A stretch of 64,000 nucleotides of DNA from Thermoplasmatota archaeon (lineage in GTDB: Archaea > Thermoplasmatota > Penumbrarchaeia > Penumbrarchaeales > Penumbrarchaeaceae): positions 19,323-83,322 of the forward strand of contig CBDDUX010000038.1 of the NCBI GenBank assembly GCA_965234725.1, read 5' to 3'. Each line of letters begins with the position of its first letter. The stretch's first letter is position 1. The notes under the pieces were generated by a model, which did no database searches, was not told where the DNA came from, and saw only the letters and a list, made by a program, of their open reading frames with translations. A program made the position numbers and the translations under genes. Below, in pieces: positions 2,742 through 64,000 of the stretch.

Positions 2742-2815
2742 GCCGCAGTAGCTTAGCAGGTTAGAGCGTACGGCTGTTAACCGTAAGGTCGTCGGTTCGA
2801 ATCCGCCCTGCGGCG
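2742..2815 (+). tRNA. tRNA-Asn (GTT), intronless, CCA not encoded
   Basis: Acceptor stem GCCGCAG/CTGCGGC, anticodon arm TACGG-CTGTTAA-CCGTA, T-loop GGTTCGAATCC. Confidence 0.97.
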
Positions 2816-2862
2816 CTTTTTACATCAACATATTATTTGAACAATGAAGTTGGGACAATAAT

Positions 2863-24400: not shown

Positions 24401-25659
24401 TCATAGTCGAGATGCTTCTCTTCGGGATCGTCCTTTGCCACCTGAAGATCGGCAACTGCCGGTGATGAGAAAATGGAGGCACGGGAACTGCCGGTCTGGT
24501 AGTCCCAGAGCTTCTTTCCGGAAGGAGTATAGACATAGAGCTTTCCGCCCCATCCGGTCCAGGTCCTCGGATATCCTTCGGAACATCCGATGAAGATCTC
24601 ACACTCTGGGGAACCTGTGACGTTTGCAACAGCGGATGTTGCATAGGTCTGGTGACCTCCCAGATATCCGCTTGTGCTCTCGTCATAGTTGGGTTTCCCC
24701 TCAGCGTTCTCTCCCTGCCTTTCCCAGATCCTCAGACCCCTATCGTGGTTTCCTATGATGAGCTCGGTGTCCCTTTCCTTGGATGGATCAGGATTGATCA
24801 GCTCTGGACCATCCCAGAAATCACCATCAAGGTCGTGGGCGACGACAGAGCATCCGATAAGACCTCCCTCACCGCCGGTCGGAGCTTCTTCTCTGAAGAT
24901 CGCACCACCGTCGACCTCGAAGGCCTCCATCCAACCCTTCCTTCCTTCATCATCGGAAGCAAGGACGATCTCAAGGTCCTCCTTGTCACCAGTCCAATCT
25001 CCTTCAAGATCGGTGATACAGGCTGTGGAGAAGTAATATCCAGTTGTCAATCCCTTCTTCCACTGCTTCTCTCCATCCGATCCGATACAAAGGGCTCCGT
25101 CCTTCACACCAATGATGATCTCGGGAGTATCACCAAGGTTCACATCAGCCGCAATGACCGATGCAAAGATGTGCGGAGGATCGAAATCGAGACCGGACGT
25201 ACCAGCCGTCTGTCCGAGATAATCTATGACATCATCACCATACGGATTGGGCCAAAAATAGCCCCCGTCAGGTCGTAATGCATAGATGTAATCACCAGCA
25301 GAGGCGATGACGACCTCAAGATCGTTGTCATTGTCCAGATCGACAATGGCAGGGGAAGAGAGATATTCTCCCTCAGCCTCGAACAAGGTGGTCTGCCATT
25401 CCAGCTGACCTCCGCCAGACCTGGTGATGTAGTCATTCACAAGCGGGTTTCCAGTATCATCTACGGGTGCCTTGATCTGACCAAATTTCTCGAAGAGATC
25501 CCTCTTCGAATTGAGCCAGGTATCGAAAACAAGGTTGTCGACATCAACTGTATCGACATATTTGTAAAGCACATATCCCCCAATGGCCGAAGCCGTGAGG
25601 AGCATCAGGATGCCCCCCATGAGCAGTAGTCCCTTGGGGTGGAATCTTTCTGTAATCAT
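21421..25659 (-). CDS. Large surface protein: FG-GAP/PQQ-like beta-propeller, Ig-like (NEW3-type) repeats, CARDB, TM anchor
   Basis: SSPAIVDLDNDNDLEVV-type repeats, HYDLNRTG, V.N.GN..D Ig repeats, PDL...NVGDIPA...DPENTVVE (CARDB), N- and C-terminal TMs. Confidence 0.85.
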   Translation of the reverse strand: MITERFHPKGLLLMGGILMLLTASAIGGYVLYKYVDTVDVDNLVFDTWLNSKRDLFEKFGQIKAPVDDTGNPLVNDYITRSGGGQLEWQTTLFEAEGEYLSSPAIVDLDNDNDLEVVIASAGDYIYALRPDGGYFWPNPYGDDVIDYLGQTAGTSGLDFDPPHIFASVIAADVNLGDTPEIIIGVKDGALCIGSDGEKQWKKGLTTGYYFSTACITDLEGDWTGDKEDLEIVLASDDEGRKGWMEAFEVDGGAIFREEAPTGGEGGLIGCSVVAHDLDGDFWDGPELINPDPSKERDTELIIGNHDRGLRIWERQGENAEGKPNYDESTSGYLGGHQTYATSAVANVTGSPECEIFIGCSEGYPRTWTGWGGKLYVYTPSGKKLWDYQTGSSRASIFSSPAVADLQVAKDDPEEKHLDYEVVFGSDNGMMYVMNTEYHNLLWSFDTGGRCMSSPAICNINNDDELEIVIGSDSGKVFCFDGDPSDGIDEGVPYPGDGPTQDVLWVYDTTVPIGISSPVVGDIDLDGMLEVVIGDQEGHVYCISAGGRSVKGQADWAEFHYDLNRTGFYNPQTSFGVDIYPRKDIETGQPLDTVVKSAQPGSYVTYNLTVENTGKGISEVNKDVIYVEVEQDSIPQGWSVFLDTPPDRGNDNPSYVRLASQEVAFLQLTVYAPWEGDIGEMARINVSANSSQDQFASDSITTLTILDLFVDFELNYLKQPSTDPLDPLVGEKWDKINPGAEGIYTISVLNKGNLNDTYELTLSPPPLDAGWDWYFVETGDITANISLTAPPLAEQFGGITGTSFTVKVKCPIDATKDTQIPIILTGVSGRSKEAVIEDIIKVDKLIMIVGEVNELQLRIEDSTKYVDPNGTVEYTLEITNLGNKDIIYVVLSIEGKQPGWTVRYPEEPQAVYQGQTRPVTIRVTAPGYVGANQKLVLNVIGVVKDATNIRASAPLTVIVNHVYEFDAVVIEKDSVRVDPGNNVWFRMQVSNLGNGEDMIMPNAYEILLDWNLTFYNLEGYQKYEFTMDWKSNIFINGRIKVPENTRTGWYVVGVNLTGEGSSKVVYVKVYVNQTYDLQVETLDDTNVMTAQIQPDQEKPFVLRVGNYGNGLERVTLRLGKQYDPVRDQMEVLYDGWEGKFVAIANTPDFTTNIRPFDFTNEIPISNLVADVYYTPNFTAAAVSGSNLNEIRDITLVLDKGQTAWVHLTLKAPRFEVQSSATTDISVAGRGEGGPNDWNETIIKLEVLFPDLVFVKDDKGRAVEFSGGNADSGYHATVGDVLTIIVKIKNVGDIPAENVDVQLKIDGEEKKVSTLRSVRNGDNETDEKTVIFSWVAEAGDHKVEVILDPENTVVEAPGGEGDSNSVSRTVKVQGSFVVKELVNNNPIISTMLIILLAIVALVGAALLLKTTKRI

Positions 25660-49837: not shown

Positions 49838-52800
49838 TCATTCCTCAATATCAATTTGGACCTGAGCGGTCACTATCTTTTGTGGAGATGGTTTCTTCTT
49901 TCCTTTAAGAATAAGGAAAATGACAACACTGGTGATAATAAGCAGTAAAATTGTCATTATGGCAATGAACCAGGATTCCGGCTCACCTTCGTTCACCACA
50001 AGGGCCTGATAGAATCCGGAGAAAGCCACCATGATGAATGAACCCGCACCTATCCTGCCTGCATATTTATGGATCTTCATGGTCGGCCTTTTATGTTTCA
50101 TTATCTTGGTGTATTTGAAATATAATCCCAATCCAAGAGCAGTGAAGGACCCAATTATAGCAATGATACCGAACCAGGAATGCAGCACTCTCAGATGATC
50201 CCCGGTTCCGGATTCAACCATGATATAACCCAGGATCAAACCGATCGTTCCCATTATCACTGAGGTCGACATCACATAGATATGGAATTTTAAGAAGAAT
50301 TTCCATTTCTTTCGGTATTGTGAGACCCAGGCAGCTATCATACCTCCTACACCCAGGGTCATGAATATTGCATGGAACGGCCACAATACAACAGGGTCCT
50401 CACTTGAGGTCTCTCCTGATGCGATATCGATAGTTCCATAACCGACTCTTGTATGCATATTACTGAAGGAATCCGAATCACCGACCCCCCAGATTATCTT
50501 GACAGTTCCGTTCCTGGGGATCGGATTATCCTTATCATCACCGGTATCCAGTTTTCGGACTATCTCTATGGTGGTAACACCATTTATCTCCCTTCCTCCG
50601 AATGAATCGATATCATCTGTTCCTCCCTGTTCAGTATCAGCGGGATGGGGGCCGGTTGGTCCTGTTGAATATGCATCAATGACCTTGACTGTTCCGTCTC
50701 CTTCCACCCATCCGAATATCATGTCGGAATCTGACATTGCCGTACTGTAATCGATTCCAATTGAGACCCATCCAGTGGTCTTACCCTGAATGGCCAACCT
50801 TATCGAATCACCTTCCACTTTCCAGTATATGGTGATGATCCCGTCTCCAAATGTACCGTTGAAATCATACTCATCTTCTGATATCATTCCATCCAGATCG
50901 GCTGTTACCGGTGGTTCTTTTCCGCCTGGACCAATGGTTAAAACGGCAAATCCTCTCTTGGAGTGTGTCTCCCCGAAATCGTCGTGCTCTCCATAGGCCC
51001 ACATGATGTTCAGGTTGCCTGCAGTGGGAATATCCTTGTCGTAATCGTCACCAGTGGAGATATTCCTTACGAACTCGATCGTCGTCACACCGTCAATTTC
51101 AGTTCCGTTATACTGAAGGATATCCATTGTTCCTCCAAGATGGGTGTCGGGAGGATGAGGGCCGAATTGACCCGTCGAATACGCATCTATGATATGGACA
51201 GCTCCATTTTCGATCCAACCAAGGACCACATCAGAGTCCATCATGACATCTTCTGGGTCGAACCCTATGGAGATCCATCCAGTGGTCCTGGCTGATATTG
51301 CCATGTGAAGGTCCTGGCCCTCGATCGTCCAGTGTACCTTGAAATTGTCGAAGTCAAAACTGGCAGAATCCTTGTACTCACCAGTTGAGATGATTCCATC
51401 CAATCCTCCCACAGGTTGGGGTTCATCCATGTATAGTAGTAGTGTTCCGGATCCTCTATCTGAATGACTGCTCTCCGGATCATCCGAAGAACCCAATCCC
51501 CAGATGATATTGAGGGATCCGGAAGAGGGGATCTCTTTGTCGTATACATCCTGGGTATCCAATTCTCTTATGAATTCTATTGTTGTGTTCCCTTCTGTCT
51601 GGGTTCCGTTGAATGTGATGATATCATCCGAACCACCAAGGTCCGTATCTAACGGGTGAGGTCCCAGGTTTCCCGTAGAATATGTATCCCAGAGACCTGG
51701 CCCGTCATCATCCACCCATCCGATGAGTAGATCGGCATCTTTCATCATGGTGGTTGGTTCGAATCCAATGGATACCCAGCCTTCGGTCTCACCAACCATT
51801 GCCATCCATATCCTGGTCCCGTTAATGGACCAGTGCAAAACAAAAGAACCTCCTCCGAAGGATGCGGAATCATCATATTCGTCCTCTGAAACGATTCCGT
51901 CCAGTGTGGTATTCCTCAGAGGTGGAGGGGGGGGTGGAGGAGTTGTATTGGTCCCGATCTTCCAGGTAGTTGTTCCTCTCCGTGTATGAAGTGAAGTTGG
52001 ATCGTCCGAATCAGAGACTGCCCAGATGATCGTCATAAGACCTGTTTTGTTGATGCTCTTATCATAAAGGTCTGTTGAGGTCATGTTCCTGAGGAACTCT
52101 ATTGTTGTCCATCCATCCGACTCCGTCACATTGAAATCCAGGATATCATTTGTCCCACCAAGGGTAGTATCTTCAGGATGCGGTCCTTCAGGTCCTGTTG
52201 AAAATTGATCGAAAAGATGGGGATCGCCGTCATGATATCCAAGCATCATATCGCCATCTGCCATCCTGTCGGAAGGATCGATGCCGAGAGATATCCACCC
52301 AGTTGCCTGGGCCCTGATCCCAATTGATATTGTGGTTCCATTTAAGTTCCAATGAAGTTCGAACCTATCTGAGTCGAATATCTTCGAGCTGTTATATTCC
52401 CCTTCAGAGATCATACCATCGAATTCTGAAAAATGTAACGGTGGTGGAGGTGGTGGAGGAGGAACGGTTTCATTGGAGAGGTTCCACATGATCGTCCCTC
52501 TCCTTGTATGGGTGGCCATCGGATCGTCTGATTCAGCAACTGCCCAGATAAGTGGGAAAGCATGATCGGTCCAAATCGTACGATCATTAGAATCGCTGGT
52601 GGAAAGGTTCCTTCTGAACTCGAATGTGGTCCAGCCTCCGGATTCCGTTCCGTTATAGGAGATAATATCGAAAGTTCCACCCAGGTCCTCATCGCGGGAA
52701 TGAGGACCTGTCGCACCCGTTGCGAAATGGTCCTCTGACTTTGCGAGGTTTCCTTCAACCCACCCGAAGATAAGATCCGCATCCAACATTCTATCGGTCG

Positions 52801-54100
52801 GGTCGATCCCGATCGACACATAACCGGAGACCTGTGCCCTGATCCCGATATCTATTGATGTTCCGTTCACTTTCCAGTATAGTTCGAACATGTCGCTGTC
52901 AGTTTTCGTTACGTTCCCATATTCATCCGGATCTATAATACCATCAAAATCAGATTTTGGAGGTGGAGGGGGAGGTGGCGGAGGAGTAGCGTCTACCCTC
53001 CAGGTGCCGTAACCGACCTTTGTATGTTTCGCGGAGATATCATCGGATGTTGAGATGCCCCAGATAATGTTCAGCGGAGTTCCTATCGAAATATCCTTGT
53101 CATTGGGATCTCCAGTTGAAAGCGCTCTCTTGATCTCGAGCGTGGTCCAGCCTCCGGATTCTGTAGCGTTGAAAGCCTTGATGTCGTCTGTTCCTCCGGT
53201 CAGATCGGTGTCAAGGATATGTGATGTTGTGGTCGTTGCATAATGGTCCTCTGCATAGGGACCGAAAGCAGAATATCCACCCATCAGGAAATCCGCACCG
53301 AGCATCATTGTAGTGGGGGATATCCCCAGAGATATCCAACCTGTGGTCAATGCCTTCACACCAATTGTGATATTCGGACCTGTAACATTCCAGTACAAAA
53401 GGAAATTCCCCGAATCATATGAAGTGCTGTTTGAATACTCTCCGTCCGTTATAATTCCGTCAAGTTCATCAGAAGCAGGAGGTGGAGGAGGAGGGGTTCC
53501 ATCCATCATGATAGTGTCGAAATCAGCATCATCGTGTTCTTTTGTCCAGTCATCATCTTCCCTTGTGGCCCATATTATCTTCATCGAGGTCCCGTTGACG
53601 AACTTCTTATCATATGCATCCCCGGTTGACATAGCTCTCTTGAATTCTATGGTGGTCGATCCAGCGGATTCAGTCCCGTCAAATTCATCGATATCGAAGG
53701 TCCCGCCGGTGAAGGTAGTATCTTCAGGATGGTTGCCCTTGTCATCGGTACAAAACGTGTCCTTGATGTGTGGTGTCCCGGTTCCATCAACCCATCCGAA
53801 TATCATGTCTGCATTTGTCATGAGGTTCACAGGATCTAATCCCAGGGAAAGCCAGCCAGTGACTTCCGACCTCATCCCTATGTAGATGTCGGCTCCTGTA
53901 GTGGTCCAGAATATCTCGAATTTCCCCTCATCAATGTTCTTGGAACTCTCATATTCGGATACTCCAATTACACCGTCTATTGTAGGATCCGCTCGGGTTG
54001 GAGCAGACTCTCCAGATGATCCGGTAGGACCAAATGGAATTATGAAGAAAGCTAATGCAATGTAGAGGACCGTGATCAGATGAATACCTTTTAAAGACAA
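49838..54100 (-). CDS. Secreted 7x DOMON (heme b-type) protein fused to a cytochrome b561-like membrane domain
   Basis: Seven repeats DG.I...EY / GW.S.G....M..AD / H..RG with Pro-rich linkers. The C-terminal TMs carry four His (FHAIFM, FHIYVM, LHSWFG, IHKYAG). Confidence 0.88.
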   Translation of the reverse strand: MSLKGIHLITVLYIALAFFIIPFGPTGSSGESAPTRADPTIDGVIGVSEYESSKNIDEGKFEIFWTTTGADIYIGMRSEVTGWLSLGLDPVNLMTNADMIFGWVDGTGTPHIKDTFCTDDKGNHPEDTTFTGGTFDIDEFDGTESAGSTTIEFKRAMSTGDAYDKKFVNGTSMKIIWATREDDDWTKEHDDADFDTIMMDGTPPPPPPASDELDGIITDGEYSNSTSYDSGNFLLYWNVTGPNITIGVKALTTGWISLGISPTTMMLGADFLMGGYSAFGPYAEDHYATTTTSHILDTDLTGGTDDIKAFNATESGGWTTLEIKRALSTGDPNDKDISIGTPLNIIWGISTSDDISAKHTKVGYGTWRVDATPPPPPPPPPKSDFDGIIDPDEYGNVTKTDSDMFELYWKVNGTSIDIGIRAQVSGYVSIGIDPTDRMLDADLIFGWVEGNLAKSEDHFATGATGPHSRDEDLGGTFDIISYNGTESGGWTTFEFRRNLSTSDSNDRTIWTDHAFPLIWAVAESDDPMATHTRRGTIMWNLSNETVPPPPPPPPLHFSEFDGMISEGEYNSSKIFDSDRFELHWNLNGTTISIGIRAQATGWISLGIDPSDRMADGDMMLGYHDGDPHLFDQFSTGPEGPHPEDTTLGGTNDILDFNVTESDGWTTIEFLRNMTSTDLYDKSINKTGLMTIIWAVSDSDDPTSLHTRRGTTTWKIGTNTTPPPPPPPLRNTTLDGIVSEDEYDDSASFGGGSFVLHWSINGTRIWMAMVGETEGWVSIGFEPTTMMKDADLLIGWVDDDGPGLWDTYSTGNLGPHPLDTDLGGSDDIITFNGTQTEGNTTIEFIRELDTQDVYDKEIPSSGSLNIIWGLGSSDDPESSHSDRGSGTLLLYMDEPQPVGGLDGIISTGEYKDSASFDFDNFKVHWTIEGQDLHMAISARTTGWISIGFDPEDVMMDSDVVLGWIENGAVHIIDAYSTGQFGPHPPDTHLGGTMDILQYNGTEIDGVTTIEFVRNISTGDDYDKDIPTAGNLNIMWAYGEHDDFGETHSKRGFAVLTIGPGGKEPPVTADLDGMISEDEYDFNGTFGDGIITIYWKVEGDSIRLAIQGKTTGWVSIGIDYSTAMSDSDMIFGWVEGDGTVKVIDAYSTGPTGPHPADTEQGGTDDIDSFGGREINGVTTIEIVRKLDTGDDKDNPIPRNGTVKIIWGVGDSDSFSNMHTRVGYGTIDIASGETSSEDPVVLWPFHAIFMTLGVGGMIAAWVSQYRKKWKFFLKFHIYVMSTSVIMGTIGLILGYIMVESGTGDHLRVLHSWFGIIAIIGSFTALGLGLYFKYTKIMKHKRPTMKIHKYAGRIGAGSFIMVAFSGFYQALVVNEGEPESWFIAIMTILLLIITSVVIFLILKGKKKPSPQKIVTAQVQIDIEE

Positions 54101-54183
54101 AACGACACCTCGATTTTTCCCAAATAGGATTTATCTTCATTCATTATATGGGTTTTTCTCTTGAAAAAGTGATTTTACAGGCA

Positions 54184-54737
54184 AAGGTGTGACTAAAGGA
54201 GGTTTAAATCAAGATGTAATTTCCTTTAGTCTACAGAGCGGTCCATTCTAACTTTAGTTTAAAAATCGTTGAAATTGAAATTATCCACACAAGGACCGGT
54301 TGGGAGGGGTCTTATCGTAGTATTATTGTCGATATTCAAGATAAGACCCCTGAGATGAAAAACGGTTCTCAGTTTATCTCATCATTTTTCATCGTGTGTA
54401 ATCAATTTGTAGCAGTGAAATCCGTATCAATATATCATTGACGATAGGAGTTCACTGCGGAAGAGGTCCACTCCCCGAATAGGATTATAAAACAATAAGA
54501 GGGGAGTGGACCGGTCGGGAGGAGGGTGAAATGCTTTTCACACGACTTAGGAAAATCGTTTGCGATTTTCTGGTATCTTGACCGCGGGGCAGAGTAATTT
54601 GAGAGTATCTGCCAGGTCAAGGTGTGACTAAAGGAGATTTTAATCTAAATCTAATAACCTTTAGTCTACGGGCCGGTCCATTCTTCGCAATAATTCAATA
54701 GTAATTATAAGAAGAATGGACCGGTCGGGATTTGAAC
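54184..54737. repeat. Structured repeat cluster 1: hairpin modules delimited by tRNA 3'-end fragments at 54293-54305, 54507-54520 and 54717-54737
   Basis: (T)GGACCGGTCGGGA copies, the first with one mismatch; the last extends to the reverse complement of GTTCAAATCCCGACCGGTCCA. The modules recur at 57.75-58.34 kb. Confidence 0.9.
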
Positions 54738-54839
54738 TAAATATGGTTTAGAACTTATTTTTATTCATTTAAGTTATTAAAGAGGTGATCTGTTCGAACC
54801 TACCTTTGCGAATCTCCTGGGATCGATTGTCCACTTATT

Positions 54840-55032
54840 GGGTGGACCAAGAGAAAACTCTGCCGCCCCCGGATGAAGTAGCATTGGAGGAAACCTCTCC
54901 TTTCCGGCCATTGAATTATCCGAATTGGAGAGGCTTCCGCCCGCGAAAAAGGAAATCTTGGACGAAAACCCGGATATGGAACCCGGGAAGGACGAAGAGC
55001 CGGAGATGGAGTATCTGGACCCAGAAGCATAG
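54840..55032 (+). pseudogene. Frameshifted remnant of an acidic Pro-rich C-terminal tail
   Basis: VDQEKTLPPPDEVALEETS, then in another frame FPAIELSELERLPPAKKEILDENPDMEPGKDEEPEMEYLDPEA*. Resembles tails of surface proteins elsewhere in this window. Confidence 0.45.
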
Positions 55033-55041
55033 ATGACCTCT

Positions 55042-57297
55042 CTACCTGTAGACTGTGTAAGGGACAGTGAACGAACCCGCGGTTGTTTGGATGCTCAGCT
55101 CCCCGCTTACGGACTGCGCGGTCATATAACCCGAAGCACCTTCCATAATCCCATAGTCTGAGGATGCGGAAACACTGGATATATAACCCGATACGGATCC
55201 CGAACTGCTGATCAGTCCATTTTTTTCTTGGTAGATCAGATGAGGACAACCCCCGGAACACGTGCTTGTCCAGGAACCTGTGACCTTCAATGTTCCGGTA
55301 ACCTTTCCGTTGTTGTTCACAGTCGCGGTCAACGTGACCGTCCCGGAAACCGTGAAGAGATTATTGTAGGCGACGGTCCCGCACTCGGGACAGTTCTGCG
55401 TCAATGTAAATACCGTATTTCCGGTAAAGGGACCTTGGTAGACCAACTCCTGATCGATCGGAGGTTTCTCGATCTTTCCGACAAAGGACTCGTATACATC
55501 TTTTCCTCCCTCGAAAATGCTCTTGATGGTCCCTTCGGCGTTGGGAATTATCAAGCTCTCCACTTTGGACCGAAAGCAGTTCTCGACCCTGTTGATACCA
55601 TTCTTGATCATATCGACAGTACCGGGGACATTCAGATTGTGCAAGGCGGCACCCAGGCCGATCTCCCCCATGCCGCCCGTTAATGTCACGTACAGAAGGG
55701 CAGCTGTTGGTAACGCCAGAGCAGCGGCCGGCGCCCCGAAAAGCGCGGCGATCCCAATGGCCACGGCAGCAGTACCGCCAATAACCTTGTAGGCCGTATT
55801 GAAGGCCTCTGCCGGTCCTCTCGCGGAATCGCCGAAATAACCCCTGGACGCCATATTCACATTAGATTCTTGACCGTTCGACAGTGCATCGTAATATGCT
55901 TTAAAGCAATCGCCGGACCGCGTTACGGATCGAACGGGACCTTCATCGATAACCGGTGATTCCCAGTCAGTATCCAATTCCGATTGGGCCAACAACATGC
56001 CCATTATCATCCTGTCAACGAAAGCGAGGGAGGACAGGTCAATATCGATATTATCATCACCGATCGTCCCTATTTTGTAGTTATCGGTATATCCCTGGAT
56101 AACGGGGCGAATACCCTCCACCAGGGATTCCAGGTTTGATAATTGAGCATTTACGGCAGAGGTCATCTCCGTGGTCTCCAGGGATGTGCCCTGGACCCCG
56201 TTCCTGTTCTCCCGGGCAAATTCCAAGGCCGCTTCGAGGAAAATGAGGGTCGCCTGGCCGTCGGGCAGCCCGGAATTGGGCAATTCCAGCGCATGGAATC
56301 CGGACAATGTGTTGGATTTCGTGATCTTGCCTCCGGATTCCTTGATCACCTGGATATCGTAACTCCCGGAGGAGAAGCCCCCATCGCTTGTGATCAAGGG
56401 CGGGACCGCGACCGATACAGTCTTTAGGGTAACATCCACCGAAGGCACCTCAATGGAAATACCATGGTCGTCGGTAAAGCATACCAGGATATCGCCGTAT
56501 GTCCCGAAACCCGTCCCCGAAACCGTAAGTATGGCACCGGGTACGCCGGAGTCCATGTCCATCGACGCTATCTCGAACTTGTCCTCGTCTTCAGTTCCAA
56601 ATCCCATGAACAAAAGACCCGCACCCACGATTATTGCGCCAAGGATCAAAAGGACAATTAAGATGGCAATTGCTCCCAGACAAAGGAACGGGGTCGCGGA
56701 CCCCTTCTTCCTGGGTTTTCTTCTTTCTTCCTCCCCGGTAGATGGAAGATGAGGCGCCTTCCAAGTGAACTTATGACCGCAATCGTTGCATTCCCCCCGG
56801 CCGTCGTCCAGGAAATCGATATCCTTGCTATTGCACTTCTTGCATTTGCCAGTTCTTAGAGTCTTCACATGCTCTTCGACCTGCTCAGGCGCCTTGGGCC
56901 TGGAACTCTTTCTTCTTGAAAGGATAATTATGACTATGATCAATACCACGATCAAAACAAGGATCCCGAGCACTATGGCGCAGATGCCGCAGATTGCAAG
57001 ACCGGAAAAAGCAAAGAGACTAAGATTGTTCCCTTCCTCGGGCTTGTTGGTAGCATCCCTGGGACCTGTTCCTGCCTCGTACTCCTCCTGGTTGTCGTAC
57101 CCCTCCCTGTCCGGGTCCTCATAAATTCCTTCTTCAACACCACCGAGATATTGGATCTCCCACAAATCCAGGAGCCCATCCGAATCGGAATCGCCCACAT
57201 TGTCCTGCGCCGATGTTGAAGTAAAGGCGCAGATCAGTATCAAAGTGGATAAGAACAATGCAAAGCTAATAAGGACAGTTCTTCTTTTATTCTTCAC
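55042..57297 (-). CDS. Cargo membrane protein: Ca-binding DxDxDG, TM, Zn ribbon, TM, IPT/TIG-like domain, long hydrophobic segment
   Basis: DSDSDGLLDLWE, CKKC...CNDC, SGVPGAILTVSGTGFG, and a Gly/Ala-rich hydrophobic stretch. Confidence 0.75.
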   Translation of the reverse strand: MKNKRRTVLISFALFLSTLILICAFTSTSAQDNVGDSDSDGLLDLWEIQYLGGVEEGIYEDPDREGYDNQEEYEAGTGPRDATNKPEEGNNLSLFAFSGLAICGICAIVLGILVLIVVLIIVIIILSRRKSSRPKAPEQVEEHVKTLRTGKCKKCNSKDIDFLDDGRGECNDCGHKFTWKAPHLPSTGEEERRKPRKKGSATPFLCLGAIAILIVLLILGAIIVGAGLLFMGFGTEDEDKFEIASMDMDSGVPGAILTVSGTGFGTYGDILVCFTDDHGISIEVPSVDVTLKTVSVAVPPLITSDGGFSSGSYDIQVIKESGGKITKSNTLSGFHALELPNSGLPDGQATLIFLEAALEFARENRNGVQGTSLETTEMTSAVNAQLSNLESLVEGIRPVIQGYTDNYKIGTIGDDNIDIDLSSLAFVDRMIMGMLLAQSELDTDWESPVIDEGPVRSVTRSGDCFKAYYDALSNGQESNVNMASRGYFGDSARGPAEAFNTAYKVIGGTAAVAIGIAALFGAPAAALALPTAALLYVTLTGGMGEIGLGAALHNLNVPGTVDMIKNGINRVENCFRSKVESLIIPNAEGTIKSIFEGGKDVYESFVGKIEKPPIDQELVYQGPFTGNTVFTLTQNCPECGTVAYNNLFTVSGTVTLTATVNNNGKVTGTLKVTGSWTSTCSGGCPHLIYQEKNGLISSSGSVSGYISSVSASSDYGIMEGASGYMTAQSVSGELSIQTTAGSFTVPYTVYR

Positions 57298-57372
57298 CTT
57301 GAGACCTCAAGTATATAGGTTTGTAGTAATATTAAAAACATCTCAATTATAAAGAAAATATTGTTTTATTGG

Positions 57373-57642
57373 CTAATGAATAGCGTTAACTCGATCTTTC
57401 ACGTGCTGATCGAGGGTGAACTGTTTGTTCCCCTTACCGTTCTTCTTCATATATTGACGGGTCCCTCGGCCGAATCCCATCTTCTCACACACAATATATG
57501 AAAAGGATAGAATTTTCTTTCGGAGGTCCTGATTATCAACACGTTCAAGTTTCAGAGTAGGTTGAGATGGATCGAGCGTTTTCCAATTGCCTATAATATG
57601 GTTGGATAATTCTTGAGTTTTCATTTGGATGATATTAATCCA
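57373..57642 (-). pseudogene. cas1: 5'-truncated remnant of a Cas1-solo/casposase gene (C-terminal helices + HTH)
   Basis: WINIIQMKTQELSNHIIG..KTLD...P..KLERVDNQDLRKKILSFSY...KMGFGRGT.QYMKKN...NKQFTL..HVKDR resembles, from memory, the HTH-bearing C-terminus of archaeal stand-alone Cas1/casposases. An in-frame TGA precedes the Trp. Confidence 0.7.
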
Positions 57643-57752
57643 TCACTGGTTTAGACTTAATAATTGGACCAATTGAGTTCTAAACCGGTTTTAGGGCAGA
57701 ACGTAATAATCTTGTTTAATCCAGATATATTGAGAATATTTCTAAATATGAA

Positions 57753-58341
57753 TGGTGGACCGGTCGGGACCTTGGCCGCGGGGCAGAGTATTTTGAGAGT
57801 ATCTGCCAGGTCAAGGTGTGACTAAAGGAGTTGTTCTTCAGAATATCATTACCTTTAGTCTACAGACCGGGACACTTTTCCTTTAGTTTTGAAAAGGTTG
57901 AAATTGATATTATACACACAGGACCGGTCGGGACCTTTGAATCGTAGTGATATTATCGTTTATTCAGATTCAAAGGCATCGCCAAAACCTTCGGTTTTGT
58001 CTGTCCCTCGGTTTCCCTACACTCAACCTCGGGAGCCAGATGAAAAACGAAAAAATGAGTTGTGATCTTTCAAATCTTTTCAATCATTGAAATTATTTTA
58101 ATAAACACAGGTGGACCGGTCGGGAGGGGTCTTATCGTAGTATTATTGTCGATTTTCAAGATAAGACCCCTCAGATGAAAAACGGTCATCATTAATATAT
58201 CATCATTTTTCATCGCGTATAATCAATATGTAGCAATGGTTTTCGTAGAAATTTGGAATTGACGATAGAAAACCATTGCGGAATAGGTCCACTCTCCGTT
58301 AATAATTAGAAAATAATTAGAGGAGAGTGGACCGGTCGGGA
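57753..58341. repeat. Structured repeat cluster 2: hairpin modules delimited by tRNA 3'-end fragments at 57753-57769, 57921-57933, 58110-58125 and 58328-58341
   Basis: The first copy is the reverse complement of TCCCGACCGGTCCACCA, including CCA. Module 58126-58327 is homologous to 54306-54506; 57770-57920 is homologous to 54577-54670 and 54184-54292. Confidence 0.9.
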
Positions 58342-58612
58342 TCAATACCATTTAAGGTTTTGACCACTTTTTTTTATTTCCTTTAAAAACTCGTATTTAC
58401 AAATAGTTTTTACCTTTAAATATTGATATATTTTAGATATAATTTAAATTAATATTTCATTCTACATGTCAATTCTTGGGAGTAAAGTAGATATCCCCTT
58501 GTTGATGACAATAATATATCTTGACCGGTTTCAAATATCAATGTGATGTAAGTGATATGTGTACAATAGCTTTTTATAATCGGTTAGAGATATAAATTTC
58601 AATTAGAAGGAG

Positions 58613-61600
58613 GTGTTCATCCTGAGAGGAAAAGAAGTGTATATAGTATTTGTTACAGTCCTGTTTCTGACCTCTGGCTTGTCTTTCTTGATGCAAGGAG
58701 AAGTTGATTCATTTGAAGATACCCTCTACAAAAATGTGAAAGGTCTTCATCTTAATCTGGATCTGATATCTGATTATTCTAAGGAATATGATTTGAAATC
58801 TGAAAACAATATACGGACAATATCATTCAATAAGAATAATCATGAAAAAGGTATTTTCTCAATTGAGGTTGATGATTTAAAGTTAAATGTTGAATCATTT
58901 ATCCTTTGTGAAGAAAATGGAATAGAAGAATATAAAGAGAAATCTAATGACAAAAATGCCTTAAATGGTTTTCCAAATGAAAATAAAATTAAGTACACCA
59001 GCGAGAATAATTATGAAATCAATTATGATGTTACTGTAAATGGGATAAAGGAAACTCTTGTATTGTATTCATATCCCGATAATATTACATCTGATTTAAT
59101 TCTCCGGTCGAAGATCTGGACGAACTCTTTTGTCAAAACTAACAATAATAATGGTAGTTATAATATTCCTGAAAAGGATATCAAATTCTTTTTCAATGAC
59201 TTCATGGAAAAAGAAATATTTTCAATATCAAAACCTTTCCTTTTATCATCACCTGAATCTATAATGACTGAAAATGGGAAGCTGGAAATGCAGGATACCA
59301 TTAAAAGGATGCCACTAGAACATAGATATCATTATGATAAACATTACATTTACCATGATATTATAATACCAAAGGATGTTGTCTATTCCGATATCAAGTA
59401 TCCATTATATGTCGATCCCTCTATCACTACATTCAGTGGAATAACGACGTATGAAGGTTATGTTAATGGTTCGATTTCACAAACAATTGACGGTGATACA
59501 ACATGGTATTATGATTGTTCAAGGACAATTCTACTTGATAGTAGTATAACAATTGGTGTTGATGAAGTTCTAACTTTCAAAAATATAAGAGTGAAAGCTA
59601 ATGATAATGATATGGCTATAAATGTTGATTATGGGGGAACCTTAAATATTATTGATAATTCAGTTTTAACAGCTAACTATGATTATTACGAGTATACAGT
59701 CATATATAAATATGGAAGTTATGGAAATATCTTGGATAGTGAAGTTAAAAAAGCAAAATTTGGAAATGGGATTGAAATTCGATCATCTAATGTTTGGATT
59801 AATAATTCTCTTATTCATATAAATGGAGATTATGGTGTTTATATTTATCAATCCAATCCTATAGTATCTCATTCAAATATTAATACAAACGATTATGGAG
59901 TATATGTCACAGCATTCTCAAGTCCAACATTAGTTGGAAATGACATTAATATCAACACATATGGTGTTTATTATGAGAGTTCCAATGTGGTTGAAGAATT
60001 TTCCTCTTCAATAAATATTGATCAGTTGGTTGGAACAAAGTACGAAAGTAATTCAGTTCAATGGGATGTCGGGTTGGGAAATTATGCTTTGACTTGCCCT
60101 TCTGTCACGGTAGATTCGACCTATCAAGCAGCATATAATGCAGGACACCTTTACGACGGAATAACTGAGGAAGTATGGTGGAATCAATGGGATAGTTGGT
60201 ATGATTATAATCCACATTGGGCAGTGTTTGATTTTCAAGAACAAAAGACAGTCGATGAATTTATAATTCATCATAGATCAGATTTCCTGACTCAGGATTA
60301 TCTAATTCAAACATGGACAGGCAGTTCTTGGTCAACCCAAGTGAATGTGAATGACAATACTCAACAGATCAGAACTCATACTTTGGGATCAAGTGTGACA
60401 ACTCAAAAGATTAGACTCTACATCACGGATGCGAATCCTTCTGATGGTATGGCAAGAGTACGTGAGTTTGAAATATATGGTGAAACAGACGATTATGAAT
60501 GTCATTACATGATTACAGATCCAATTGAAACACATGGAGATACCATTTTCGGTAACTTAATCTTGGATAAAACCGAACCAGGTGATTCTCAAATACTCGT
60601 TTCTATTCTTGATGGTGTGACTGAAAATGTCATTACTGGATTTGATAGACTCGAATCTGATGAAATTGACCTGAAATGGATCGACACTGAAGATCATCCA
60701 TCCATCAAAATAAAAGCTGAGTTTGAAAAGGTAGATACTGACACTCCAACCCTGAACGGGTATGACCTCTATTTCAGTCCGTTGAAAGATTATCTATCCG
60801 ATTTTGAATCAGATGACGAGTTTTCTTCAATGAATTATTTAGAAACAAGAAACGGTCAGGCAACTCTAGAGTTGGAAGAAGAAATCCTTGATGAGGAATG
60901 GAGCACTGGTTGGGATTCAAGATGGACGGTTGAGACCTTTGAAGACGGTGGAGATGTGTATGTCTCAACTGACTATTGGGAGGATTCTGGTAATGACCTC
61001 TATATGCATGGAAAATCACTTTCATCTACTTCAGGTCATAATGGTCATGTCCAGGTTTCTAAAAACTTCGGTGAGATTGATCCTGGTGACACTATTCAAA
61101 CTCATTTTGAGGGGAGTATCCACCGGTATGATTATAATGAAGCCGATTTCGAGATTTATCTCTATAACTCTGGAATGACCTCATTTAAGAAGATCAGATG
61201 GACAACAAATAATAATACGTATGATCCGGGAATTAGTGGTGATACTTATTACATCATCGCTCAGGATACTCATCCGTTTGCTCCTTACTTTTATGATGTT
61301 GTCATCCATTCTACCATTGAAAATCTCTTTGAGAAATACTTTGGAGAGGAACAGGTAGACTTCGAAACGTATAACGTTTTGTATGTGAAATCATTCGCAA
61401 TAGAACAATACAATCATCATGAAAATCCAAAGGTGTACATTGATTATTTCATTGTATCAGACATCGCAAAATCAGGTTCTGCAATTTCGACTGTATTTGA
61501 ACTTGAACCTTTGACCAAATGGGCTTTTGTTGCTCTTAACAAAGATGCTTATTATAACACAGATGTGAAGGTAAGTATTCTCAATGGTTATGGTGAATCA

Positions 61601-64000
61601 ATAGAGGGATACACAGAACTATCTGATGAAGTGATTGATATATCAAATCTAAATTATTTTGGTATAGAGTCAATCCGTGTGAAATATGATTTGATCTATA
61701 GCGAAGAACCTCCTGCCATTAACTGGATGAAAGTTCTGATGTCTCCCATATTCGATGATAATATAATTGATAACAATGAATATGGAATAGTCATTTTAAA
61801 TTCTCTTCCGATGGTGAGTAATAATACAATATCCAACTCAACATATTATGGTTTACATATTCAAGAAGATAGAGTTGAAACCAGGACAAATACTGGTATC
61901 AAATTTATTGCAAATGATAATTATTTCTATAATAATCCTGTAGGTGTTGAAGCTGAAATGACCTGTGCCTCATTTTCAGGTAATGAATATCGGAACAATG
62001 ACGTATCGATTGATGTTAAAGATTCTTCTGTCTGGTTTATAAGGGAATTTATATACGGAAATGAAGGAAATATCTGGTTAAATGACAGTTATATTTATTT
62101 CAAACAATGTTTATTCACTGAAGGTCATTTTGATTTGTTTCTTTTGAATTCTGAAGTGATGTTCGATAATCTCACAGGAACAGATAATGACCAAAACAGT
62201 ATTGATCTTAAAAATTCAATAGCGACTTTCCTTGATTCCCGATATTGTGACAGTCTTACAAAATCTCTTGATGCAACATCTGAGATCTATCATAACTGGA
62301 GGTTCAGTCTTTATGTGAATGATGATGGTTATCCGAATGTGAAAAACATTGATGTCTATGATAGAAATGAAGTTTCTGTATTATCTGTTCAAACAGATGA
62401 TAACGGGTATTATGAAGGATCACTTCCTGAAAAAGTGATTGATAACGTTGGGGAAGATATACTATCTCCGTTGAATGTAAAAGTAAATACAAATTACAAC
62501 AATTTTTATCTGAATATGAAATCCCCTCAACATCATTCCATCATCTTCGGGTATGATTCAGATGGTGACAGTATTGCTGATCTGGATGAGAAAGAGGAAG
62601 GAAAATACCTTTTTGAAGCTGAAGATTTCGTAGGATTGGATAAGCAGAATAACACAGGAGCCTTCCAGGTTATATCTCTTGATGATTCCAATATCGTTCC
62701 CATTGACATTGATTTAACCGAATCAGATGTTGGTGATTACAAATATTCTATTGCAGTTAAGGCTCATTATTTTGATGGATCATCAGATCAAAGTTTTCAG
62801 GTTGTTCTATCACAAGGTGTATCAGGTGGCTTGGATGAATCTTTTGAAGTGGATTCAGTCAGTAGATGGTACCAGACTCCATGGTTTATAGCCACAGATG
62901 ACAATATTATTGGTGAAATCATCGACCTGGGAGGGGGTGAAGAAGTTGAAGTTGATAAGTTCATGTGCTTAAAAAGGTATAATGATCCTCTTGAAAATCC
63001 ACCGGTTATCAATTCTCCATTGATATCTGACATTGATGAAGATGATCTTCCCGATGGGTATGAAACCACACCATTTGGTTGTTATATTGAAGCAGAACAT
63101 ACTACGTTAGCCAATGGTGATATCGAAGAATCCATTGACGCAATAAATTCAAAATATGTTGAAAATACTAATAATAACGATCCCACCTTGTCATTTTCTC
63201 TTGTTGTTGATGAAACCACAGATTATTATGTTTACGTAAGAGCAATTGATATCAGTTGTGATGATCCGCATTTCTCTGTAGATATCGGAGGTATTTCAAA
63301 GAATTCTCCCGAACTGGATGAAGAATTCAACTGGTATCCTTTTACATTTTCTTTAACCCAAGGAACGAAAACAGTTAATATTCGTGCATATGATGCAGAA
63401 ACAATAATCGGGATTGACCGTATTATTATTATTAAGGTCAGTGACGTTGAAATATCTACGGCTGAATCAGAAAATATTGAAATCCCGATATGGGCTAATA
63501 TAAGACAAGCCAATTTCGATTATATCGTTGGCTATGGAAGTTCCTCCACTATTTACGATAATCATATGCAGTCCAACTTGGAGTTTGATATAGATAATAA
63601 CCTGACAGTTTTCTCGTCAAATGATAATATTTATGCTTACAATGATACAAATGATCTTCTCTATGAGATTGAAACGGGAGGGGAGATCGATTCCGAAAAA
63701 CCTAGCATAAGTCGAGGTGAGGTTGTTTACCAGGATGATTCAGGAAATATTTATTATTCCGATATTAGGAAAGGACCATCGAATATTGATACCGAACTGA
63801 TTTCGTATTATGATGAAACTAACTATTATGGCAATACTCCAAAAATCTCTGATGGAACAGTCGTGTGGTCATATAACAATCAGTTAGTTGCTAGATTAAC
63901 AGATAGCTGGCATTTGATCCCCATACAAGATGAATCAAATTACCAGATAAAACAGCTTTATGATGTTAGTGGTAGAACAGTAGCATGGGTGTCCATTTAT
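58613..64000 (+). CDS. Giant secreted multidomain protein, 3' end beyond the window: beta-helix repeats, F5/8 discoidin, Ca-binding and CBM-like domains
   Basis: The frame is open in every segment I translated and at the window end (...DVSGRTVAWVSIY); its absence from the ORF track fits the lack of a stop. It has a signal-like N-terminus, N..YGVY beta-helix repeats, PHWAVFDF...KIRLYI...VREFEIYG, DSDGD and FEAED/IEAEH. AT-rich. Confidence 0.85.
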   Translation, partial: MFILRGKEVYIVFVTVLFLTSGLSFLMQGEVDSFEDTLYKNVKGLHLNLDLISDYSKEYDLKSENNIRTISFNKNNHEKGIFSIEVDDLKLNVESFILCEENGIEEYKEKSNDKNALNGFPNENKIKYTSENNYEINYDVTVNGIKETLVLYSYPDNITSDLILRSKIWTNSFVKTNNNNGSYNIPEKDIKFFFNDFMEKEIFSISKPFLLSSPESIMTENGKLEMQDTIKRMPLEHRYHYDKHYIYHDIIIPKDVVYSDIKYPLYVDPSITTFSGITTYEGYVNGSISQTIDGDTTWYYDCSRTILLDSSITIGVDEVLTFKNIRVKANDNDMAINVDYGGTLNIIDNSVLTANYDYYEYTVIYKYGSYGNILDSEVKKAKFGNGIEIRSSNVWINNSLIHINGDYGVYIYQSNPIVSHSNINTNDYGVYVTAFSSPTLVGNDININTYGVYYESSNVVEEFSSSINIDQLVGTKYESNSVQWDVGLGNYALTCPSVTVDSTYQAAYNAGHLYDGITEEVWWNQWDSWYDYNPHWAVFDFQEQKTVDEFIIHHRSDFLTQDYLIQTWTGSSWSTQVNVNDNTQQIRTHTLGSSVTTQKIRLYITDANPSDGMARVREFEIYGETDDYECHYMITDPIETHGDTIFGNLILDKTEPGDSQILVSILDGVTENVITGFDRLESDEIDLKWIDTEDHPSIKIKAEFEKVDTDTPTLNGYDLYFSPLKDYLSDFESDDEFSSMNYLETRNGQATLELEEEILDEEWSTGWDSRWTVETFEDGGDVYVSTDYWEDSGNDLYMHGKSLSSTSGHNGHVQVSKNFGEIDPGDTIQTHFEGSIHRYDYNEADFEIYLYNSGMTSFKKIRWTTNNNTYDPGISGDTYYIIAQDTHPFAPYFYDVVIHSTIENLFEKYFGEEQVDFETYNVLYVKSFAIEQYNHHENPKVYIDYFIVSDIAKSGSAISTVFELEPLTKWAFVALNKDAYYNTDVKVSILNGYGESIEGYTELSDEVIDISNLNYFGIESIRVKYDLIYSEEPPAINWMKVLMSPIFDDNIIDNNEYGIVILNSLPMVSNNTISNSTYYGLHIQEDRVETRTNTGIKFIANDNYFYNNPVGVEAEMTCASFSGNEYRNNDVSIDVKDSSVWFIREFIYGNEGNIWLNDSYIYFKQCLFTEGHFDLFLLNSEVMFDNLTGTDNDQNSIDLKNSIATFLDSRYCDSLTKSLDATSEIYHNWRFSLYVNDDGYPNVKNIDVYDRNEVSVLSVQTDDNGYYEGSLPEKVIDNVGEDILSPLNVKVNTNYNNFYLNMKSPQHHSIIFGYDSDGDSIADLDEKEEGKYLFEAEDFVGLDKQNNTGAFQVISLDDSNIVPIDIDLTESDVGDYKYSIAVKAHYFDGSSDQSFQVVLSQGVSGGLDESFEVDSVSRWYQTPWFIATDDNIIGEIIDLGGGEEVEVDKFMCLKRYNDPLENPPVINSPLISDIDEDDLPDGYETTPFGCYIEAEHTTLANGDIEESIDAINSKYVENTNNNDPTLSFSLVVDETTDYYVYVRAIDISCDDPHFSVDIGGISKNSPELDEEFNWYPFTFSLTQGTKTVNIRAYDAETIIGIDRIIIIKVSDVEISTAESENIEIPIWANIRQANFDYIVGYGSSSTIYDNHMQSNLEFDIDNNLTVFSSNDNIYAYNDTNDLLYEIETGGEIDSEKPSISRGEVVYQDDSGNIYYSDIRKGPSNIDTELISYYDETNYYGNTPKISDGTVVWSYNNQLVARLTDSWHLIPIQDESNYQIKQLYDVSGRTVAWVSIY

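Follow-up and report, generated by a model that had tools for sequence, protein, structure and literature searches.

Hairpin modules alternating with tRNA 3'-end copies behind tRNA genes of an archaeal family

Introduction

The closest described systems to the locus reported here are the tandem casposons of Methanosarcina and Aciduliprofundum (family 2), which target tRNA 3' ends and leave duplications of 14-15 bp. According to one paper (PMC4779613), the Methanosarcina casposons duplicate CGCA plus 10 nt, tandem copies at tRNA-Leu share one duplication, and repeated use of the site leaves elements separated solely by duplicated target. A second paper (PMC6614799) describes the A. boonei casposase that needs the T-loop sequence TCAAATC, which acts as a 'leader', plus CC, and that makes duplications of 14-15 bp. 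Here we analyze a window of 64,000 nt from the genome of a Thermoplasmatota archaeon (G000; 114 contigs, 97.65% complete; the window is contig C38, 19323-83322), in which copies of a tRNA-Ala 3' end alternate with short hairpin modules and a gene cassette between 54150 and 58341. We compare it throughout with a better assembled congener of the same genus (G004, 20 contigs).

As in tandem casposons, the array reuses a tRNA end and its inserts are separated by nothing but the copied target; additionally, the cassette in the window holds a casposase remnant. However, a casposon duplication takes in the final 4 nt of the tRNA together with 10 nt of flank, whereas the copies here comprise tRNA nt 60-73 or 55-73. 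The casposon-type geometry, with the duplication about 8 bp past TCAAATC, is absent from the array copies, which start at T60 or T55, and the classical geometry is seen only in casposons with GGGGTAGTATAC-type ends. Casposons are also several kb long and affect one tRNA species, whereas most inserts here are non-coding hairpin modules of 150-215 nt without terminal inverted repeats and nearly all tRNA species are affected. Unlike casposons, the scanned cassette open reading frames (ORFs; window and contig C28) hold no family B DNA polymerase, and Pfam shows no polymerase of any kind in those of the 3-kb window cassette.

Tandem units behind a tRNA gene are also known from E. coli tyrT, where each of the 178-bp repeats (rtT RNA) carries the last nucleotides of the tRNA; Rfam contains an RtT model. 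This is a single locus, whereas the arrays here concern most tRNAs of a whole archaeal family, with module families common across tRNAs. Their units are hairpin palindromes without sequence relation to rtT and match no Rfam family at threshold. MITEs (miniature transposable elements with inverted repeats), repetitive extragenic palindromes (REPs) and REP doublet hairpins (REPINs) are likewise short, non-coding, multi-copy, hairpin-forming and intergenic, with compensatory stems and no strand bias. In array insertion, unlike in these elements, the site is strictly a tRNA 3' end and the flanking repeat measures 14 or 19 nt. The modules share with MITEs the flanking direct target repeat, but they do not end in inverted repeats, and their ends match neither those of the cassettes nor those of the casposons. 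We rejected IS200/IS605 omega-RNAs and REP/REPIN elements with a REP-associated tyrosine transposase (RAYT) because no TnpB or Y1 partner was found in the genome: PF01797 (Y1, RAYT/IS200) has 0 matches in G000 and PF07282 (TnpB/IscB) just one sub-threshold match.

Integron arrays likewise combine ordered, promoter-less single-gene cassettes and short structured sites with a repeated core and a fixed anchor, and both kinds of array vary in content between close relatives. Unlike in integrons, the core here is a tRNA end, which varies between arrays, and the hairpins do not have attC architecture. An IntI-type integrase is missing from the ORFs scanned upstream of the congener's tRNA-Ala and, on the G000 contig starting at tRNA-Ala(TGC), from the four leading ORFs of 100 aa or more. 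CRISPR arrays also alternate a short repeat with inserts next to a 'leader', near a Cas1-family gene, and the sharing of distal but not proximal units between two congeners (one pair) adds to this likeness. CRISPR repeats, however, measure about 23-47 nt and separate unique spacers of similar length, whereas a 14-nt repeat here separates reused inserts of 150-3039 nt. There are no cas genes at the array locus; the genome's second Cas1, besides the Cas1-solo described below, is fused to Cas4 and paired with Cas2 on another contig. The original prediction, made from the letters of the window, spoke of a CRISPR-like repeat/insert array. The tRNA-end array itself stands, but 'CRISPR-like' holds as an analogy, with no defining CRISPR feature present.

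Results

Copies of a tRNA-Ala 3' end in the window

The tRNA sense of the array is the minus strand of the window, where the repeated 14-nt motif, TCCCGACCGGTCCA, equals nt 60-73 of tRNA-Ala. Scanning the plus strand with TGGACCGGTCGGGA and allowing up to 2 mismatches yields seven copies in a single orientation, at spacings of 215, 210, 3039, 164, 192 and 216 nt, whereas dinucleotide shuffles contain 0.53 on average and reach seven in 0 of 100 cases. Copy 1 (58328-58341) is the nearest to the tRNA within the contig and is exact, as are copies 2 (58112-58125), 4 (57756-57769), 5 (54717-54730) and 6 (54507-54520). Copy 3 (57920-57933) has one mismatch and is without A73, and copy 7 (54292-54305), the most distal in tRNA sense, is degenerate with two mismatches. 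On the minus strand CCA comes after copy 4, and GTTCAAA before copy 5 extends its match to tRNA nt 53-73. Seven same-strand copies at these spacings, one with CCA and one with the T-loop, are what the original prediction described; its start positions were 1-3 nt off.

The prediction had also assigned the motif to the acceptor end of a tRNA-Ala with a G3:U70 pair. ARAGORN finds 40 tRNA genes in G000, and all three tRNA-Ala genes among them (GGC on contig C28, CGC on C102, TGC on C103) end in GGGTTCAAATCCCGACCGGTCCA and begin with GGGCCGG, which gives G3:U70. The array is real and tRNA-Ala-derived.

Reused hairpin modules

Read in tRNA sense, the window contains, in order, the end of a >5.6-kb element, a tRNA-end copy, modules A, C and B', a 3-kb cassette, and modules B, A and B''. 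Each unit comprises a non-coding module of 150-215 nt with 3-5 perfect hairpins, followed by the cognate tRNA end. The two module A units (58126-58327 and 54306-54506, minus strand like all units here) score 165.8 and 157.3 bits with the covariance model (R1) described below, and BLAST aligns 54306-54520 with 58126-58341 at 83% over 218 nt. Module B types recur in the same way: 57770-57933 matches 54150-54305 (79% over 128 nt) and 54521-54730 (87% over 100 nt). The units concerned are B' (57770-57919), seen by BLAST and folding, B (54521-54716) and a terminal truncated B'' (54150-54291), which abuts a gene with DOMON repeats and is orthologous to the last unit of the congener's array. The recurrence of modules A and B noted in the original prediction is thereby confirmed at 79-87% identity. 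Module C (57934-58111) has no BLAST twin in the genome (query 57934-58125). Inspection by eye shows a beginning in common with B and a final hairpin in common with an A-type unit of G004; the module is a degenerate mosaic in which a B-like start is followed by the 3' half of an Hp2, then a D-type hairpin and finally an Hp3 of the A' type.

The unit at 58126-58327 forms four hairpins (DNA fold z -7.0): Hp1 (~58286-58333), in which the end of the tRNA copy pairs with an exact complement, then HpX (~58233-58279), Hp2 (~58174-58214) and Hp3 (~58124-58172). In module B, Hp1 is a 14-bp stem of CCGGTCCATTCTTC with GAAGAATGGACCGG and four further hairpins follow (DNA fold, z -9.5). Compared with dinucleotide shuffles, the A and long B units have fold z scores of -5.4 to -9.5 on both strands and under either parameter set (DNA parameters: -5.8 to -9.5), and module C and the short B units just -0.6 to -4.1.

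As predicted, the modules lie outside the known Rfam families. The sole match of Rfam 15 in the whole window is a tRNA-Asn at 2742; nothing within 54100-58450 comes near threshold, and the best E values of the array, with C/D-box and tRNA models included, are 0.71-9, all far below gathering scores. A C/D-box or k-turn identity of Hp2 was rejected, its best support being sR1 at E 7.1. We likewise rejected a split or permuted tRNA: neither ARAGORN nor the Rfam tRNA model detects anything in the array, the halves rebuild no tRNA fold, and the Hp1 arm complements the acceptor 3' strand.

The orthologous array and its turnover

In G004, seven units (B-A-B'-A'-A'-A''-B'') stand directly after tRNA-Ala(TGC), and beyond them lies the DOMON/cytochrome b561 gene that also adjoins the array in the window. 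This array is internal to a 353-kb contig, and the distal flanks of the two genomes are 85.8% identical over 900 nt. The predicted linkage to a tRNA-Ala is thus borne out in the congener, and by this orthology the window region appears to be the distal part of an array anchored at tRNA-Ala(TGC). The upstream side of the G004 gene has no nucleotide match in G000, so we infer tRNA-Ala(TGC) as the anchor in G000 from the downstream flank only. Base 64000 of the window is the final base of its contig, and contigs C102 and C103 break 23 nt past their tRNA-Ala genes (CGC and TGC) with identical trailers; the assembly of G000 breaks just at the start of the inserted element after these genes.

The array had been expected to vary among relatives, and it does. 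The two most distal units are common to the window and G004 and the proximal part differs (one pair); for example, module C sits between an A and a B' unit that adjoin each other in G004. Across the 21 tRNA species with enough flank in both genomes, copy number differs at 14. Congener arrays differ by gain or loss of whole units and by a different module placed between two copies. In the tRNA-Arg(GCG) array, 143-nt units enclose a module A that has exactly T60-G73 at either side, which has the appearance of a clean insertion. At tRNA-Asp and tRNA-Leu(TAG), on the other hand, the extra G004 unit lies between repeats of ~95-120 nt, which consist of the tRNA end and the trailer. In contig data of the probable source sample, unitigs break at module borders, and relatives of about 90% identity carry the modules in different order.

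Arrays behind most tRNA genes

What the original prediction missed is that tRNA-end arrays are a genome-wide and family-wide property of most tRNA genes and not a tRNA-Ala peculiarity. Counting copies of the last 12 nt of each tRNA with at most 1 mismatch, 14 of 40 tRNA genes in G000 have a downstream 3'-end copy; one of these, tRNA-Phe at +901, resembles chance, and 12 of the 40 genes have less than 700 nt of contig downstream. The same count gives 21 of 30 genes in G004, where copies number up to six and stand 106-526 nt apart. A tRNA with an array carries 1-6 units of a hairpin module plus its own 3' end in these two genomes. The left edge of the copies falls at T60 in 11/24 (G000) and 19/37 (G004), and at T55, with TCRAATC kept, in 8/24 and 8/37; the right edge is mostly 0-2 nt beyond the discriminator, nt 73. 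The T60 class therefore spans nt 60-73 (14 nt), and the T55 class, which accompanies other module types, spans nt 55-73 (19 nt). Many copies are followed by T runs, and distal copies are degenerate.

Reverse transcription of mature tRNA stops at m1A58. An origin of the copies from mature tRNA by reverse transcription was rejected, as CCA comes after just 2 of 9 non-gene tRNA-Ala copies; the copies also frequently come after the gene's own trailer, which counts against such an origin.

The module A family

Twelve module A copies from seven tRNA identities align over ~160 nt as three hairpins, HpX, Hp2 (an A5/T5 stem) and Hp3, and an independent MAFFT/RNAalifold run on 12 copies finds compensatory changes in 16 of 25 pairs. 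Genome searches with a covariance model built from the 12-copy alignment recover full-length module A in 23/23 other genomes of the family (seven genera, 4-24 copies each), or 24/24 with G000. Outside the family it occurs in 1/2 genomes of the sister family, 1/4 of the other sampled families of the phylum and 0/11 in the rest of the class, and viral contigs gave no Hp2-type pattern. Matches in G000 adjoin tRNA-Gly, Leu, Glu, Arg and Ser genes, and each unit ends in the 3' end of the local tRNA. Among 29 loci around the best match of each relative genome, ARAGORN places a tRNA gene at 21; it lies on the same strand, 0-1019 nt upstream of the module, and the tRNA-end copy behind the module agrees with the tRNA of that very genome, down to lineage-specific substitutions. 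Module families are common to tRNAs of different identity, and the tRNA-end copy is always that of the local tRNA.

An alignment of 58 distinct copies fitted to the model pairs in 95.5% of cells, versus 67.2% in shuffles, with double changes in 23 of 25 pairs and a covariation score of 0.654, versus at most 0.125 for slid-partner controls. With one loop-proximal column left out, the stems contain 18 G-U and 25 A-C combinations. Since G-U is not in excess over A-C, the stems read as palindromes kept at the DNA level and not as an RNA selected on one strand; one position is an invariant U-G in 42 of 58 rows, on the tRNA-sense strand only. In a tree of 62 copies (quick search, last 16 alignment columns dropped, support solely by the Shimodaira-Hasegawa-like approximate likelihood ratio test, SH-aLRT), G000 and G004 orthologues pair, and copies of other genera cluster partly by genus across tRNA types (SH-aLRT 90 for a mixed g6 clade, 89 for g5 Leu(TAA) with Gly(TCC)). 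This clustering points to movement or homogenization of modules between tRNA loci.

Hp1, an inverted copy of the tRNA end

In many units the last 3-12 nt of the tRNA and a few following bases pair with an exact complement 23-30 nt downstream. The 3' arm of the tRNA-Ala Hp1 has A opposite U70, that is, it complements the 3' strand of the acceptor and not the 5' strand with its G3. Judged from this base, the complement was copied from the tRNA 3' strand and not from the tRNA 5' end. Perfect stems of at least 8 bp lie directly after 4/35 tRNA genes in G000 and 8/30 in G004, with a shuffle expectation of at most 0.11. The same counts rule out Hp1 as a universal feature of tRNA trailers.

Gene cassettes and casposases

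The cassettes are single-gene inserts between tRNA-Ala copies that encode surface proteins or enzymes; those on contig C28 carry a methyltransferase, an FG-GAP protein and a papain/lectin protein. The window cassette (54731-57755, minus strand) resembles a decayed casposon and lies between two exact 14-nt copies (54717-54730 and 57756-57769), a length that agrees with the 14-15-bp duplications of casposons. The cassettes have what look like subterminal inverted repeats: distal ends carry GTTCTAAACC exactly 14 nt before the tRNA-end copy, in the window at 54745-54754 (plus strand GGTTTAGAAC). The proximal end of the 3-kb cassette has a degenerate ATATTTAGAAAT at 6 nt from the copy, and the tRNA-Ala trailers on C102 and C103 contain the full inverse motif GGTTTAGAAC 10 nt past the tRNA. 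A second, larger inserted element, of which the window holds the distal end (58342-64000, plus strand), carries GGTCAAAACC on the minus strand 14 nt from copy 1.

The cassette cargo (55042-57297, minus strand) is a predicted membrane or surface protein of 751 aa. No Pfam family scores above cut-off for it, and the 23 other genomes of the family contain no close orthologue, the best match reaching 30% identity over part of the protein's length. Residues ~35-145 form a domain common to hundreds of large ORFs (often >900 aa) in all 24 genomes of the family; this N-terminal domain may act as a signal or anchor module that surface proteins have in common.

The predicted Cas1/casposase remnant is present at 57388-57690 (minus strand, overlapping an 83-aa ORF at 57373-57624). 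It aligns at 47% identity (E 2e-23, one in-frame stop) to residues 297-397 of the genome's 407-aa Cas1-solo protein and comprises the C-terminal, non-catalytic part only, the catalytic Cas1 domain being gone. We found no closer intact relative of it in the 24 genomes. The intact Cas1-solo gene adjoins tRNA-Leu(CAG): with a 315-aa ORF it abuts this tRNA on contig C59 (1-2456) of G000, and on C55 (200-300) the same element end (GGGGTATTATACAAATC...) comes after an orphan 22-nt tRNA-Leu-like 3' fragment. These two ends suggest tandem or multiple casposons. The G000 casposon copy is cut by a contig end, that of a relative (G001) is split over two contigs, and that of another (G012) has no tRNA nearby and no flanking direct repeat. 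Several stop-containing remnants, keeping just the C-terminal 50-80 residues in frames of 53-93 aa, occur in G003, G001, G004 and G009, scattered and away from tRNA-end copies.

A first metagenome scan for related casposons returned nothing; a search with an alignment query yielded three close casposons whose identity to the C59 casposase is 71-72%. In one of the three, 19-nt repeats additionally enclose a 137-nt module that contains an inverted tRNA-end copy. On metagenome contig L124 (5791-6040 and 11280-11330) a casposon has tRNA-end-like sequences on either side in inverted orientation, and a 29-nt imperfect inverted copy of the T-loop-to-trailer segment of tRNA-Leu(CAA) lies just past the tRNA.

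Discussion

Origin of the arrays

We favor, at roughly even chances, an origin of the arrays from small non-coding palindromic elements that make a 14-nt target duplication, followed by unequal recombination, with casposon-like cassettes sharing the sites. The modules would be non-autonomous and would insert directly after the discriminator base, where a 14-bp staggered cut would duplicate nt 60-73 as the target-site duplication. With at least two copies in place, unequal homologous recombination between units would expand, contract and shuffle the array, and casposon-like cassettes would use the repeated copies as additional places to land. Among enzymes, a Cas1 integrase of the casposase type is the leading candidate because of the 14-bp length, the known T-loop recognition and its presence in the array; that a casposase is indeed the responsible enzyme and makes the 14-nt duplications is nevertheless rather doubtful, the alternative being an unknown recombinase. 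It is unlikely that the arrays as a whole were built by a Cas1-family casposase, with the T-loop as leader, the 14-nt copy as repeat, and modules and cassettes as inserts. The inverted target copy in each insert would then hint at a hairpin-guided or self-templated choice of site. Taken together, the interpretation in the original prediction, repeated target-duplicating insertion at a tRNA-Ala end, is partly supported.

Several observations weigh against the favored origin or against a casposase within it. Casposases or their remnants occur in only 6 of 24 genomes of the family, versus modules in all 24, and only one of nine such loci, that of the window, lies within 1.5 kb of a tRNA-end copy. 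We found no intact casposon flanked by copies of nt 60-73, and the three metagenomic casposons sit at tRNA-type ends in the classical 4+10 geometry (...NGCA + 10 nt) with terminal inverted repeats GGGGTAGTATAC. The modules themselves lack terminal inverted repeats, and they have no end in common with the cassettes. The ~95-120-nt repeats at tRNA-Asp and tRNA-Leu(TAG) fit duplication or deletion of units by homologous recombination rather than a fresh 14-nt duplication. Hp1, the inverted copy of the target, is the oddest feature, as plain target duplication gives no account of it. The locus is covered only by contigs of the probable source sample, and these show no joints of excision or insertion usable for this strain.

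The units might instead be functional elements of the tRNA trailer, co-transcribed and processed into small RNAs at the tRNA-end copies, or acting as terminators or processing signals, with growth solely through unequal crossing-over. Their constant position directly 3' of tRNA genes in the same orientation across 24 genomes and seven genera agrees with this, as do the hairpins so strongly kept by compensatory change, the T runs after many copies, the invariant U-G on the tRNA-sense strand (42/58 rows) and the tRNA-Asp and Leu(TAG) comparisons, which fit unequal crossing-over. We nonetheless consider it improbable. With that column left out there is no G-U excess (18 vs 25 A-C), an uncommon pattern for an RNA under selection; two congeners carry different numbers of units at 14 of 21 comparable tRNAs, and many tRNAs have no units; distal copies decay; the same module occurs with different tRNA ends and clusters by genus across tRNA types; and Rfam offers no match. 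Less probable still is a tyrosine recombinase platform, in which the copies are att-type cores and modules and cassettes are excised as circles and re-integrated into an integron-like, tRNA-anchored array. Partial tRNA 3' duplications on the flanks of integrated elements are described as the classical signature of archaeal integrases (PMC9897764), the 19-nt class begins in the T-loop, and the genome has seven tyrosine recombinase genes. The single surface-protein or enzyme genes of the cassettes without a recombinase of their own, the conserved motif at a fixed 14 nt from the copy and the shuffled module order among tRNA-Ala arrays would also follow. A single enzyme would, however, need to tolerate more than 15 different cores; no inverted core arms of the kind expected around a T-loop crossover are formed 5' of the 19-nt copies; and one module family with different tRNA ends is not what a carried att site predicts. 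Moreover, no integrase turned up among the ORFs scanned on the upstream side of the anchoring tRNA-Ala in G004, among the four leading ORFs (100 aa or more) of the G000 contig starting at tRNA-Ala(TGC), or in the scanned cassette ORFs (window and C28; two giant C12 ORFs left out).

That collapsed or chimeric repeats produced the array during assembly or binning, as the original prediction had itself considered, is scarcely credible. The contigs of this metagenome-assembled genome (MAG) do break at repeats (C102, C103, C12 and the window end), as do Logan unitigs of the source run at module borders, but the same architecture recurs in 24 independent genomes, including a 20-contig assembly with the array inside a 353-kb contig. 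In addition, the unique flank is orthologous (85.8% over 900 nt), and the window units are 79-87% identical to one another, not identical.

If the favored origin is right, fast-changing arrays of a new family of DNA-palindrome elements lie behind most tRNA genes of a whole archaeal family and represent a new class of tRNA-targeting mobile DNA in archaea. They would account for MAG breaks at tRNA genes, could serve as a strain-typing marker and would offer a natural system for how Cas1-type integrases measure and choose targets. Were they Cas1-built, the stage proposed to link casposon insertion to CRISPR arrays would have a living counterpart in them. The captured gene cassettes, with surface proteins and a methyltransferase, suggest that the arrays also act as landing pads for strain-specific genes. 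The literature we searched contains no description of such arrays, although papers beyond the scope of that search, or supplements, could hold one.

Neighboring genes and further module families

The host gene outside the array (49838-54100, minus strand) encodes a protein of 1420 aa with seven DOMON repeats and a cytochrome b561 domain that resembles a large extracytoplasmic redox protein; adjoining the array in G004 too, it is the orthology anchor between the two genomes. On the other side of the array, a giant ORF (58613 to beyond 64000, plus strand, running off the contig; >1795 aa) with an F5/8 type C (discoidin) domain sits within the second element, which is inserted between tRNA-Ala and the array. 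The only tRNA gene of the window is tRNA-Asn(GTT) at 2742-2816 (plus strand), which has no downstream 3'-end copy in G000 or G004.

Two observations outside the window concern other modules. On contig C20 of G000 (24857-25429), tRNA-Arg(GCG) is followed by four tandem 143-nt units, each ending in nt 55-73; they carry GGGATTCGAACC, which recurs in other tRNA trailers, and belong to a second module family (R type). At the tRNA-Ile, Val and Pro loci of G004, a conserved TTGGCAAGTAAAAAAGCGA lies ~35-45 nt past the Hp1 hairpin and may mark a further module family.

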